A DNA stretch of 64,000 nt from Nitrosopumilaceae archaeon (lineage in GTDB: Archaea > Thermoproteota > Nitrososphaeria > Nitrososphaerales > Nitrosopumilaceae), in the NCBI GenBank assembly GCA_965214835.1, contig CBDCCK010000002.1:704001-768000 (forward strand), written 5' to 3'. The notes beneath the pieces are model-generated. The model saw only the letters and a list, made by a program, of their open reading frames with translations. It made no database searches and was not told where the DNA came from. Shown here in pieces: positions 10,992-33,596 of the stretch (position 1 is the stretch's first letter; each line of letters starts with the position of its first letter). Both the position numbers and the translations under genes were made by a program.

Positions 10992-12044
10992 TGTCTTATA
11001 TGGAAATTAGGTTCGCCTAAGATTTTGAGAAAAGCCAAGGAATACTTTACCCTTTACCGATCAAGAAAAACGACGAAAAAGAAAGCACTGACAGAGCGAC
11101 AGATAAGATACGCCACAAGACAGCGTAAGAAGGGCAGGACGCTCAAGGCAATAGCAGAGGAGCTGAAGGTGACGCCCCAGTACGTGGGCAGACTGTGCGC
11201 CGAGTTCGAAAGAACCGGCGTAATACACGTGCAAAAGAGTCCCGGCAGGCCAGCATCGCCGCCGCCCTCAAGCGATGAGGTTCGGACGGTACTTCGCCTG
11301 TACGCCGAGCAGGACATCGGTGTGGTGCGCACGGCCAGGCGTGCAAGGGAGGAATTGAATATAAGCTACAACTCTGTATACAGGATAATGAGTGAGAACA
11401 AGCTGGTCTCAAAGTCTGCTGCAAGATCCGGACAGCGCAAGTGGCTACGCTATGAGCGCAAGTACTCCAACGCAATGTGGCACGTGGACTGGCACGATAT
11501 GAAGGATCCACGCCTGAGAGGGCTCAAATTAGTCACGTTTTTGGACGATTCATCCAGATGTATCATGGCGGCACGGACGTTTGCCGAGGCCACATCAGAA
11601 AACGTGGTGATAACACTCAGGGATGCCATAGACAGATTTGGCACGCCGGCTACCATACTGTCTGACAACGGCAGGTGCTTCAACGGCGGCCGTAGCAAGA
11701 AGAACATGCCAAAGGGGACGTGGAAGCCGACTGCATTTGAGGCCGAGCTGCTGGACCGGGGCATCGGGCTGATAAACTCCAGGCCGTACCATCCGGAGAC
11801 CAACGGCAAGCTGGAACGGTTGCACGGCAGCATAGAGAAGGAAATCCACCACTATGAGAGCCTGGCTGCATACGTGGAGTACTATAACGAGCGCAGGCTG
11901 CACTTTGCACTGGATATCGACAAGTGTGAGACGCCACTGCAGGCCTTTTTGGCAAGGGAGGCTACAGAAGCGATCAGAAAAAAAGACCCAAAATGGATGG
12001 AGAGGGACATCAATGACTAACGAACCTAATTTTCATATAACACA
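10992..12044 (+). mobile_element. IS481-family element
   Basis: TGT...ACA ends with TIRs; 15-bp direct repeat cgaagttttagaaag on both sides. Confidence 0.9.
11025..12020 (+). CDS. IS481 transposase (rve)
   Basis: RYER, WHVDW, LDDSSR, LSDNG, HPETNGKLER, YYNERR.H. Confidence 0.9.
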   Translation: MRKAKEYFTLYRSRKTTKKKALTERQIRYATRQRKKGRTLKAIAEELKVTPQYVGRLCAEFERTGVIHVQKSPGRPASPPPSSDEVRTVLRLYAEQDIGVVRTARRAREELNISYNSVYRIMSENKLVSKSAARSGQRKWLRYERKYSNAMWHVDWHDMKDPRLRGLKLVTFLDDSSRCIMAARTFAEATSENVVITLRDAIDRFGTPATILSDNGRCFNGGRSKKNMPKGTWKPTAFEAELLDRGIGLINSRPYHPETNGKLERLHGSIEKEIHHYESLAAYVEYYNERRLHFALDIDKCETPLQAFLAREATEAIRKKDPKWMERDIND

Positions 12045-12336
12045 CGAAGTTTTAGAAAGATATAAGGTTTAATACATGAACAGTATCCATGTGAATTCTT
12101 TTTAAGCATTTTCCCGGATTTCGTGACATGGTGCATGGCTTTCGCTAGGGTTGATCCACTTCCAAAGGATGGGCGGACATGTATCCATTCGGGGCTTTCC
12201 CCCAGTACCATCTTCATCCATTTGTTAGGCGATCCCGCAGTTAGTTCCCCGAGGCATTATCCTCATACTGATAACGCGGTAAATTCCTAACCATGATATC
12301 CATTTGAAACGTTTCATGCCGTCGGGTGCAAGCATA

Positions 12337-12440
12337 TCCTATAAGATCATTGGGTGGGTGGGTGGGGGCTAGGGGGTGGACACCCCTACCACGACCGCAC
12401 CATGCAGCCTTGTGAACGTCCAGTCCCACGTATATCATGC
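12337..12440 (-). mobile_element. Internally deleted IS110-family remnant
   Basis: MIYVGLDVHK N-terminal motif joined directly to a hairpin and a CCCA-repeat end. Confidence 0.5.
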
Positions 12441-12585
12441 CCTTACTACGTCGATGGGTAATGAATTTGTTTGCCTTCCCTGACGCCTTCCTGGGCTTTG
12501 GCGTATCAGCGGAGGTACCACCTGATCGCCGCATTTTCGATGTCTTCACATATGGTTAGTTCCGATTGTAACCCCGCAGCCTGCC

Positions 12586-13780
12586 TCAGTCCGGATCAGG
12601 GGGCTTTTTGATCCGTACGCTTGTGAGCTGCCTGATGATGCGGGCAAGCAGCACCTTGAGCTTGACTGCTTTTTTCTTGCTCCCAAATCTTGCGATCATC
12701 CAGATGTTCGACATGGCAAGTGCCAGGTAGAACAGCATGAGCCTTATGGAGTCGTTCCGGCTGCAGGTGAGCGGCTTGGATCTCTTGGCGTCGCGGTATC
12801 CGGTCTCTATGCCCCACCTCTTGCGGTACTCCTCGGGAAGCTCCAGCAGGTCCTCGCGGGTGCAGCCGGTCATGTTGGTAAGAAAGGCGATGTGGAACTT
12901 TTTCTTCTTCTTGTCCTCCCTTTCCAGTATTATCATGTTGCATGTTATCTTGTCGCTGCCCGATGATACCGTATACCTGCTGACTGCATCCCTCCTGCCA
13001 TCGACGTACTCCTCTATGGCCCTCTTCACTGCCTCGGTGAGCCTGGCAGGAGTCACGAACTTCATCCGGGCACCCCTGACGGCCTTGAACACGCCGACGG
13101 AGTAAAACTCCCTGTCCATCAGAACCAGCCACGGCCTGATGCCCGCTCCCCTGGTAGTCTGCAGCAGTTTACGCACGAATTCGGGGTTGAATCCGTCCCT
13201 GGTGACCTGAAGGCACGCAAGGTGCACCTGGTGCTCCTCTCCGACGGTCCTTGCCGTAATGTAGGCCTCGGCCGTGTTGGTGCCCGGCCCCCTGTACTTT
13301 ATCTTGTGGGTCATGTCCGGCTTGTGGTCGTACCTGGGAATCTTGGTCTTGTCGATGGCGATTATCGGGTTCCTGCTGATCAGGCCGCCATCTATAGAGT
13401 CCCTGACCGTCCTGCCTAGGATCCGGTCTGCCTTCCTGTGCATCGTCTCGTACCGTATCTGACCCAGCTTGCCAAGCAGCCAGTCGGCGCCGGGGCTGCG
13501 GCCCGTAGAATCCCGGAGCGACTCCGAGATCCTCGTGGCCTAACGTGTAAGGATATACCGCAGAGGGGCTGCGGCCCGTAGAATCCCGGAGCGACTCCGA
13601 GGCCTGCTCGGCGCACATGCGCTCCTTGGACATCGTTGCCAGAAGAGCCGCGGCATCCACCTCGTTGTATATCGCGTTGGGCCTGTCAGAGAACCTCATG
13701 CCTATGGATGAGACGGCTGCTTGGTACATTTTGCGCTCCCTGTGTCCGCACAGCTGAACAACCTTGTCCCGTTTTGGCAT
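12586..13780 (-). pseudogene. ISH3 transposase frameshifted by a 73-bp insertion-duplication
   Basis: IAIDKT, LMDREFY, YRKRWGIETGYR; deleting 73 bp at 13492-13601 restores one ORF. Confidence 0.88.
13492..13601. repeat. 37-bp repeat / 36-bp unique insert / 37-bp repeat
   Basis: ggggctgcggcccgtagaatcccggagcgactccgag at 13492-13528 and 13565-13601. Confidence 0.95.
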
Positions 13781-13906
13781 GCAGGTACTGCCTGGCCCCC
13801 GTCTATAGATCTGGTTGATCAGAAAAACCTGTCATTTTACTGTATTTTCAGGCCACAATCGGAACTACTGATGAACAGTAGTTGAAAATGTACCCCACAA
13901 ATCCCG

Positions 13907-15131
13907 CTAGCCGGGATCGTGCCGCCGTCCTGCTCTTGCCCGGCATGCATCCTGGGCACAAAAGGCCATTGCATAAACGGCCACCAGAGTCACCAGCGCC
14001 TGCAGCGTCATGCTGCGGATCCTGGGATCATCCGAATCCCTCATTGTCAGCCATATGTTGCATACTGCAAGCGATACGTAGAACAAAAACATCCGCAGTG
14101 CCGGGTTCTTGCTGGTGGTCCGCGGCCTGATGCTCTTGGCACAGCGGTATCCGGTCTCTATGCCCCACCTGTCCCGGTACTCCTCTGTCACATAGTCTAT
14201 CAGCTCCGCATAGCCGCGACAGCGCTGCGTGGTCGCAAACACGTGGTACCGATCAAAGATGTTCTTTGCCTTGGATTTGGGGATCTTCTTGATGACCAGC
14301 GTGAACGTGAACCTCTTGCCGTCAGATGATTCCAGTGTATACCTTGATACTGCCGGCCTCCTGCCGCGGGCATGCTGTACTATGGCCTTCTTTATCCCGG
14401 GCGTCTTGACTGCGGGCATGATGAACGCAAACCCCATCTGCGATATCACAGACATCACGGCCACCGAAAAGAACCCCCTGTCAAGCAGGACGACGCTGCG
14501 CCTTGACCAGAGCCTGGCCTTGATGCCCAGGGCGATGCATTTTCGGAGCATATCACGCACCAAATCGGCCTTTTCGTCGCCCCGCCTCGCCGGGCTACAG
14601 GCCGTATGCACGTCGGGGCCGGCCTTGGATGTCAGCTTGCACGTCATGTACTCCTAAGTTGACGGTGCCCCTGTCGTGCTTTGACTTTACCAGGTGCTTC
14701 ATGTCGGGGTTCTTGTCGTACCTGGGCATCTTGGTCTCGTCTATGGCAACGACTGCCGCCCTGCGGCTTCTTCGGAGGGCGCGCAGCTGTGTACTCACCG
14801 CCTCGACTGCCGTGCAGTGCAGCATCGCGTCGCATCTTTTCCTCATCGTGTACGGTTTCATGGATTTCAGCTTCCCGAGAAGCCAGGCCGAGGTGGGCAC
14901 CGCGACCTTGGCACCCTCCATCTTGAGGTACAGGCGGTTTTGAACGGTCTCGTTTGCACATTTGGAGTGCTCACACATGGCCACGACCAGGTGGGCGGCG
15001 TCGGCCAGGCCCCACATGGCGTTGTGCCTTGAGGAGAACTTGATCTGCAGCAGGCCCATTGCGGCGACCAGCAGCTTGAACTTGCTCTGTCCGTAGCTTG
15101 TCCGGTGTTTCTGTTTGCCCTGCTTGCCCAT
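13907..15131 (-). pseudogene. ISH3 transposase, frameshifted near 14655
   Basis: VAIDET, LLDRGFF and YRDRWGIETGYR split across two ORFs. Confidence 0.85.
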
Positions 15132-15202
15132 CAGGGTAGACTGGAACGGCGTTGTTTATAGATCGACTGGCCAAAAAATCATGTCAGTCAGTTCAAAACA
15201 AT

Positions 15203-16255
15203 TGTCTTATACAGAAATTAGGTCCGCCTAAGATAAGGCGTACGATCGCTGACTATTTCAGGCTGTACCGATCAGATAAAGACATGACAAGAAAGATGTC
15301 GGACAAAGAGATCAGGTATATCGTCAAGGGACGTAATGCCGGAAAGAGCGCCACGTCGCTGGCCCGTGACATGAAGGTGACGCCACGGCACGTGAGGAGG
15401 ATTTACGCCAGGTACCGCCGGACCGGAAAGATGCATGTGCAACAAAAGGCTGGAAGAAAGGCCGCACCGCAGCCCGCGGCAGGCCAGGTGCAGGCAGTCT
15501 TGGACATGCACTGTATAGAGCACGTGGGCGTGATGCGCACTGCCATGCGCCTGCAGGATGCAGGTCACATTATAAGCTACAACAGCGTATATCGGATAAT
15601 GAAGGAGCAAAGACTCGTTACTGCATCAGATACCAAGTCGGGCCAAAAGAAATGGCTGCGCTATGAGCGCAAGTACTCCAACGCAATGTGGCACGTGGAC
15701 TGGCACGAAATGAAGGATCCACGCCTGAGAGGGCTCAAATTAGTCACGTTTTTGGACGATTCCTCCCGGTGTGTCACGGCGGCACGGACGTTTGCAGATG
15801 CCACATCAGAAAACGTGGTGATAACACTCAGGGAGGCCATAGGCAGGTTTGGCAAGCCGGCCACCATACTGTCTGACAACGGCAGGTGCTTCAACGGCGG
15901 CCGCAGCAAGAAGAACATGCCACGCGGGACGTGGACGCCGACTGCCTTTGAGGCCGAGCTGCTGGATCGGGGCATCGGGCTGATAAACTCCAGGCCGTAC
16001 CATCCGGAGACCAACGGCAAGTTGGAACGGCTCCACGGCAGCATAGAGGCTGAGATCCGCCACTATGAGAGCTTGGATGCATACATCAAGTATTACAACG
16101 AGCGCAGGCTACACTTTGGGCTGGACATAGCCCACCGCCAGACACCCATCATGGCGTTCTCGGACAAAACTGCCACAGAAGCGATCAGGAAATCCGACCC
16201 AAAATGGATGGAGAGGGACATCAATGAATAGCGGACATTATTTCCATATAACACA
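15203..16255 (+). mobile_element. IS481-family element
   Basis: TGT...ACA ends; 16-bp direct repeat gtcagttcaaaacaat. Confidence 0.9.
15284..16231 (+). CDS. IS481 transposase
   Basis: Same catalytic motifs as 11025-12020, divergent N-terminus. Confidence 0.88.
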   Translation: MTRKMSDKEIRYIVKGRNAGKSATSLARDMKVTPRHVRRIYARYRRTGKMHVQQKAGRKAAPQPAAGQVQAVLDMHCIEHVGVMRTAMRLQDAGHIISYNSVYRIMKEQRLVTASDTKSGQKKWLRYERKYSNAMWHVDWHEMKDPRLRGLKLVTFLDDSSRCVTAARTFADATSENVVITLREAIGRFGKPATILSDNGRCFNGGRSKKNMPRGTWTPTAFEAELLDRGIGLINSRPYHPETNGKLERLHGSIEAEIRHYESLDAYIKYYNERRLHFGLDIAHRQTPIMAFSDKTATEAIRKSDPKWMERDINE

Positions 16256-33437: not shown

Positions 33438-33596
33438 TAGTGCGCACAGTTAAAATGAGATATTTTCTTATTAAAATAGGCACGATATGCCAAAATTATG
33501 TTGCAGTTTTTGATGCCACGGCAACTATTCGACAGTCAGAATTTCCGAGGAACACGATATGCCAAAATTATGTTGCAGTTTTTGATGCGTGTACTA
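33438..33596. mobile_element. M1 MITE expanded by a 72-bp insertion-duplication
   Basis: Inverted homolog of 8636-8723; 159 minus 72 is 87 bp. Confidence 0.8.
33481..33588. repeat. 36-bp repeat / 36-bp unique insert / 36-bp repeat
   Basis: cacgatatgccaaaattatgttgcagtttttgatgc at 33481-33516 and 33553-33588. Confidence 0.95.

Follow-up and report, generated by a model that had tools for sequence, protein, structure and literature searches.

The window analysed here is a 64,000-nt stretch of the genome of a Nitrosopumilaceae archaeon. At 11025-16231 it holds a nest of IS copies, in which two ORFs for rve-type integrases (11025-12020 and 15152-16231) flank two ISH3-like copies. The first of these copies took an insertion in its transposase gene (Table 1) and carries terminal inverted repeats of 13 nt (12557-12569 and 13855-13867). 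The second, a diverged copy at 13907-15131, lies beside it and is also broken into two ORFs, and a pair of 24-nt inverted repeats lies in the nest at window positions 12021-12044 and 15203-15226. Inside the hit IS, a 37-nt sequence occurs in two copies, found by repeat search at 100% identity with starts 73 nt apart, and a 36-nt insert of 50% GC stands between them. Allowing up to three mismatches, the 37-mer has two matches in the window, a number reached in 0 of 100 shuffles, and the insert has one, its own site. The initial annotation had described exact 37-bp repeats around a unique 36-bp sequence, and its coordinates and lengths were exact. Because the host CRISPR repeat is 36 nt, one boundary base is ambiguous: 37 + 36 may be 36 + 37 with one chance-identical base, and the firm value is the 73-bp total.

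Table 1. Features of the window that belong to the interrupted IS and to the triplets of target, insert and target.
Feature	Position in window	Strand	Basis
ISH3-like IS copy that took the insertion, 1315 bp (1242 + 73)	12557..13871	-	alignment to paralog
Transposase C-terminal fragment (DDE domain), from an internal ATG	12586..13443	-	Pfam DDE_Tnp_1, E = 9.7e-11
Transposase N-terminal fragment, out of frame past the insertion	13169..13780	-	ORF; first residues are those of the 373-aa paralog
Duplicated target, first copy, 37 nt	13492..13528	n/a	exact repeat; true staggered-cut distance probably 36-37
Inserted spacer-like DNA, 36 nt	13529..13564	n/a	unique in window and genome
Duplicated target, second copy, 37 nt	13565..13601	n/a	100% identical to first copy
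Second, independent triplet, 36 + 36 + 36 nt, period 72	33481..33588	n/a	genome scan

The site is preserved elsewhere in the genome in its empty form. A paralog on chromosome C2 (C2:2636016-2637257) aligns with the hit IS in two blocks that flank the insertion, one of 972 nt at 99.9% identity and one of 307 nt at 99.7% identity, and 2 of the 1279 aligned bases are mismatched. It contains the 37-mer once (C2:2636951-2636987), without an insert, and both alignment blocks overlap on this single copy. Four paralogs of differing divergence cross the site uninterrupted; therefore, the empty form is ancestral, and the copy in the window has gained the 73 bp. Empty sites were also sought in 20 relatives, which are too distant for this comparison, the best DNA identity being 75-84% and confined to IS fragments.

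The paralog at C2:2636016-2637257 codes for an unbroken 373-aa DDE transposase containing STGRSPGADWLLGKL, the residues that the initial annotation had predicted for the single ORF restored by removing 73 bp. Its further claim that the insertion knocks out the transposase also holds: two minus-strand ORFs replace the one 373-aa frame in the hit copy, and the product of the downstream fragment is identical to the C-terminal part of the paralog. The motif PTSAWLLGKL, which had been cited as the paralogous match to the restored frame, is present in the translation of the neighbouring diverged copy. The name given to the gene, an ISH3 transposase, has to be softened. ISH3 is the best NCBIfam match, but its score of 130.3 bits lies below the curated cut-off of 225, and "ISH3-like" is the safe name for the hit IS.

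The insert occurs once in the 3.22-Mb genome, and the best match outside its own site is 13 nt long. Template switching from adjacent sequence, which the initial annotation had set against its own reading, is contradicted by this result. The annotation had also called the 36-bp insert foreign. The insert stands, but the adjective is unproven, as no source was matched in any collection searched: no exact 36-mer was found in viral, metagenome or genome contig collections, a search that sources with one mismatch would escape, whereas blastn returned no match among plasmids and, among phages, only two 17-nt matches at the chance level (E = 9). An assembly artefact might be suspected at a site within a multi-copy IS, where assemblies are prone to error. 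However, the insert is unique sequence, and repeat, insert and repeat also appear, over 13499-13594/13601 and with 0 differences, in contigs of three public runs, all of one study, although these runs may be the source sample of the assembly and their support is not independent. The run contigs are short and end at the repeats, and one run (X5) barely covers the insert, an observation that carries no weight for or against a coexisting empty allele. The same precise metrics are also found at 47 loci, as described below, and an origin in the assembly is exceedingly improbable.

The initial annotation had interpreted the insertion as a natural off-target spacer acquisition, a reading at odds with any lineage devoid of cas1. 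The genome contains exactly one Cas1 match (C2:2480729-2481571), and it forms the C-terminal half of a fusion with Cas4 that is 566 aa long (NCBIfam Cas4g/Cas1g, 754.8 bits; cut-off 560), with Cas2 directly after it (Pfam, E = 3.1e-16). The main array, with 148 repeats (C2:2482178-2492954), starts approximately 170 bp downstream of these cas genes. Beyond the array lie Cas3g (630.3 bits; NCBIfam cut-off 400), Csb1/Cas7g (140.7 bits; cut-off 38), Csb2 (210.7 bits; cut-off 45) and a Cas8g2-like protein, for which the Cas8g2 model gives 100.8 bits, under its cut-off of 125. The host system is a type I-G CRISPR-Cas system. Just beyond the I-G effector genes, the opposite strand encodes a 1045-aa protein with a UvrD helicase and a PD-(D/E)XK (Cas4-like) nuclease (C2:2500864-2504001).

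The repeat of the main array is 36 nt long, with all 36 positions invariant in 148 of 148 copies and variable positions on its flanks. The array units measure 73 (54), 72 (45), 74 (18), 75 (16), 71 (7) and 76 nt (4), and the 147 spacers accordingly measure 37 (54), 36 (45), 38 (18), 39 (16) and 35 nt (7). The triplet in the IS has the same dimensions. Its 36-nt insert is inside the length range of the array spacers, and its unit of 37 + 36 = 73 nt is the modal unit of the host array. The duplication is 37 nt as against the invariant 36-nt repeat, and one extra chance base is expected in approximately 28% of events. A second array of 8 repeats (C2:135821-136367, minus strand) has an upstream leader homologous to that of the main array; therefore, the leader side of both arrays is fixed. 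This second array has two repeat variants and carries one spacer twice in succession. In the main array, spacer 41 (C2:2485136) matches a 13-kb contig (C1:6366-6401) at 36 of 37 positions, the lone mismatch being the first base. The match falls in a gene for a 1270-aa glycosyltransferase, and the contig also has an IS66 transposase; spacer 41 could be self-targeting; alternatively, the contig may represent a mobile element.

We scanned the whole genome for all pairs of identical direct repeats whose starts lie 30-300 nt apart. When the main array is left aside, pairs of 30-45 nt concentrate at periods of 72 (19), 73 (13), 74 (4) and 75 (9), with 2 each at periods of 71 and 76 and 0-3 at almost all remaining periods between 30 and 120; peaks at periods of 156 and 165 are tandem repeats in large ORFs. 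A mismatch-tolerant scan (4 in 34) found 45 sites at periods 71-76 (3, 20, 8, 5, 7 and 2, respectively), and the remainder of the range 45-120 gave 0-4 per period, except for 18 at a period of 84, which is an IS-internal repeat. The initial annotation had held that insert and duplication lengths broadly distributed over the genome would speak against spacer acquisition. The lengths are instead peaked at periods of 72-75, matching the array units.

The event set was defined by duplications of 31-42 nt and periods of 69-79, once both arrays and three regions of protein tandem repeats had been removed. It comprises 47 loci, which amount to 43 unique events when copies on duplicated elements are collapsed, and each of the 43 duplicates its own, different local sequence. 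The duplications measure 36 (15), 37 (11), 38 (3) or 39 nt (3), with ten of 31-35 nt and one of 42 nt. If the true duplication is 36 nt and chance identity lengthens some copies, 18.3, 9.1, 3.4 and 1.1 events are expected at 36, 37, 38 and 39 nt, respectively. Empty-site paralogs of at least 90% identity are present for 10 of the 43 events. Events 1308256 (the one with the 42-nt duplication) and 1736693 are older, because they are common to diverged IS copies, and the former could be an intrinsic feature of its IS. The second triplet of the window, 20 kb away from the one in the ISH3-like copy, belongs to an element present in multiple copies. Elsewhere, at C2:34440-36100, 32-nt palindromic units recur at irregular spacings of 64-195 nt and are not CRISPR-like.

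The inserts of the 43 events are informative about where the DNA came from. By BLAST against the genome, 12 of the 43 are exact or near-exact copies of chromosomal sequence elsewhere, whereas 0 of the 147 array spacers match the chromosome, none of them beyond 17 nt (Fisher p = 4.7e-9). Immediately 5′ of the source on one strand, at -3 to -1, the trinucleotide TTN stands in 7 of the 12 cases (five TTC and two TTG; one of the seven sources has imperfect ends), with binomial p values of 1e-4 for TTN in 7/12 and 1.5e-5 for TTC in 5/12. The sources of the other five self-derived inserts lack TTN. In the only characterised Cas4/1 fusion, TTN accompanies approximately 50% of unique spacers and a length of 36 bp predominates, according to the available part of the report (PMC6547450). 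We infer from the contrast that spacers of self origin are eliminated from the expressed array, whereas inert ectopic sites can retain them. One 4-kb stretch is the source of three of the 12 self-derived inserts (C2:902180-906409), which adjoins cdc6/orc1 (C2:900127-901338), the gene for the PolD small subunit and a 38%-GC segment. This stretch is probably a replication origin and possibly an acquisition hot spot. Priming was considered as the cause of the cluster and rejected, as no array spacer matches the region better than 16/18.

Two explanations that dispense with the CRISPR adaptation machinery have to be weighed against these data. Break repair can yield direct repeats around filler DNA, and the triplet might in principle be an accident of repair or replication, in which tandem duplication, slippage or break repair left filler between the two 37-mers without any Cas protein. 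The insert has no template nearby or elsewhere in the genome, however, and neither a duplication of 36-37 nt with period peaks at 72-75 across 43 sites, a distribution that is not flat, nor TTN beside 7 of 12 sources would be expected from such accidents, which makes this origin very unlikely. Another integrase or a tiny mobile element with 36-bp target duplications could also be imagined, such as a casposase-like enzyme that works on short DNA; casposases belong to the Cas1 family and likewise duplicate their targets, as stated in the available part of PMC5137440. Yet the CRISPR Cas4/1 is the sole Cas1-family match in the genome, and a search of that family found no second integrase. The inserts also differ at every site and have no common ends, and several are plain copies of chromosomal genes. 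We consider the involvement of such an element highly improbable.

The sites themselves carry traces of sequence preference. At the 86 junction ends, T is depleted at -2 (3/86; p = 2e-7), C is enriched at -4 (38/86) and A at -3 (32/86), and the first duplicated base (+1) is G or C in 66 of 86 (p = 7e-5). The pattern C[AG]GN, which was picked post hoc, terminates both real leaders and is found at 15 of the 86 ends and 14 of the 43 sites, against a background of 4% (p = 1.7e-6). The flanks of the events are slightly leader-like (7.67 vs 6.81 identities of 20; P = 0.0004), and the targets are weakly repeat-like, with a mean identity of 12.07 vs 10.45 in the 15 events with L = 36 (P = 0.004). Events 3125695 and 3161274 are the two that have both a TTC source and a leader-like end, and in both of these, few as they are (n = 2), the insert is oriented as it would be in a real array, with its PAM-proximal end towards the leader-like flank. 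A preference for hairpin-prone targets was tried and rejected (mean folding energy of -7.38 over 35 sites vs -7.03 for GC-matched controls; P = 0.23). The site in the ISH3-like copy does not itself resemble the host repeat or leader. Its 37-mer shares 11 of 36 positions with the host repeat (random mean, 10.4), and its flank shares 5 of 20 with either leader, the lowest class; a CAGG at this site is one base off the junction.

These features bear on whether the triplet could be a functional mini-CRISPR ("neo-CRISPR"), in which the 37-mers serve as repeats, crRNA is made and further spacers are gained. The repeat-spacer-repeat build and the host-like lengths agree with this idea, and off-target integration has been proposed as the seed of new arrays (10.1101/148544 and PMC6698737, in their available parts). 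However, the 37-mer and its flank are no closer to the host repeat and leader than just described, the site holds a single spacer, and more than one insert is found in 0 of the 43 events. Additionally, the 12 inserts that match the chromosome, many with TTN, would be autoimmune if expressed as crRNAs. A working locus of this kind is thus a most improbable outcome. The initial annotation had offered a nascent array as an alternative wording, which in the functional sense is not borne out by the repeat comparison and by the lack of a second spacer in any of the 43 events. The product is a scar, without a working CRISPR locus.

Overall, because the anatomy, the empty site, the host unit length, the peaked distribution, the self-derived inserts and the PAM all agree, we conclude that the triplet very probably arose when the type I-G adaptation complex of the host integrated a spacer ectopically, in a full-site, off-target reaction. 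The central proposal of the initial annotation, off-target spacer acquisition in nature, is strongly supported by the empty site, the one Cas4/Cas1, the unit length and the 43 events. From the sequence data we provide a putative mechanism, in which the identity of the enzyme, Cas4/1-Cas2, and the sequence of strand transfers are deduced. The Cas4/Cas1 fusion and Cas2, loaded with a prespacer of 36-37 bp, would engage the ISH3-like transposase gene as a target in place of the leader-proximal CRISPR repeat. The attack would fall on two phosphodiester bonds, one on each strand, at a distance of 36-37 bp. The spacer would be joined to both staggered cuts, and gap filling would duplicate the stretch between them, leaving target, spacer and target. 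The extra 73 bp shift the frame and split the 373-aa transposase, and recombination between the two 37-mers could revert the insertion.

The closest precedent is experimental. Off-target, or "non-canonical", integration was described in Escherichia coli by Nivala, Shipman and Church in 2018 (as cited in 10.1101/148544, PMC7054753 and PMC9456107). As far as the available parts of these reports go, the two cases share a spacer-sized insert, a local duplication of repeat length, a non-CRISPR chromosomal site and an adaptation complex, and the E. coli work concerns rare events under over-produced type I-E Cas1-Cas2 in a bacterium. Here, in contrast, the I-G system is native and archaeal-type and has a Cas4/1 fusion, and it is associated with approximately 43 fixed events in one genome, for which self sources and PAMs can be identified. 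For natural occurrence, the available part of a preprint that cites the E. coli work refers to "circumstantial evidence" in two other species (10.1101/148544). In Pyrococcus furiosus, Cas1-Cas2 integrated in vitro into non-CRISPR sites of plasmid targets with a spacing of 30 bp, and the available part of that report describes paired sites one repeat length apart on opposite strands, a preference for G/C and a weak likeness to repeat and leader (PMC6698737). The events described here resemble this pattern in the G/C bias at +1 and the weak repeat-likeness, but they are chromosomal, fixed and spaced by 36 bp.

Two further systems are comparable in part. The I-U/I-G Cas4/1-Cas2 of Geobacter sulfurreducens resembles the host system in its fusion, its 36-bp spacer and the share of TTN, approximately half; integration was scored in the array only, and no off-target sites are reported, as the available part of the study presents it (PMC6547450). 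In Streptococcus thermophilus, spacers are acquired ectopically inside arrays (PMC7999890, available part). This is similar to our case in that the spacer is joined away from the leader-proximal repeat, but the target there is a genuine internal CRISPR repeat, whereas the targets here are unrelated genomic sequences. In the literature searched, we found no report of a natural genome with dozens of off-target integrations, and nothing on the subject apart from the papers cited here. The mechanism is one already known from the E. coli experiments, and it is the natural scale seen here that we did not find in print.

The placement of the events within the genome carries signs of selection. DNA with other genomic copies houses 32 of the 43 events, compared with 209 of 400 random windows, and the median length of the open frame across the restored site is 163 aa, compared with 325 aa at random positions. 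Periods divisible by three account for 26 of the 43 events vs 62 of the 147 array units (p = 0.038). The events in single-copy genes are in frame and outside Pfam domains, and the genes struck encode an HtrA-like protease, a sulfotransferase and a family-2 glycosyltransferase, together with the tail of a ribosomal S4 ORF. Single-copy DNA houses 11 of the 43 events, and those at C2:204691, 2366624 and 3127496 are examples in unique genes. The region of chromosome C2 beyond 1.6 Mb contains 34 of the 43 events (p = 1.7e-4 against a uniform spread). This half of the chromosome also has the cas locus and denser repeats, and exactly repeated 24-mers cover approximately 19% of the genome.

It is likely, in our judgement, that this genome constitutes a natural and largely unselected ledger of adaptation errors, with approximately 43 fixed off-target spacers alongside approximately 155 on-target ones. 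Cas4/1-Cas2 would then be a significant endogenous mutagen, and the scars would record capture before the autoimmunity filter. If this ledger reading is true, adaptation has knocked out IS copies and added 23-25 residues in frame to proteins, and capture before the filter takes 28% self DNA, uses a TTN PAM and has a source cluster by the probable replication origin. A bolder version would see in mis-integration into IS a check on transposon load that the host tolerates or even favours.

The natural frequency and the cost of off-target integration are almost undocumented in the searchable literature. With approximately 43 mappable events, the misfire rate of adaptation becomes countable, as do the sequences that attract the integrase (G/C at the cut sites and the leader-like C[AG]GN flank), the self DNA captured before selection (12 of 43 ectopic inserts vs 0 of 147 array spacers) and adaptation as a genotoxic load that shapes genes and transposons. 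A simple scan would extend the count to other genomes, looking for solitary direct repeats with the repeat length and the unit spacing of the host. Within the genus, Cas4g/Cas1g scores above its cut-off in three of five genomes, the host included. A 400-kb sample of another genome of the same genus contains a homologous I-G array with a 36-nt repeat, as well as one clean solitary triplet (period 72, 37/35/37, C1:1938377) and one doubtful triplet. Solitary triplets are probably not unique to the host genome, but they are several-fold denser there.
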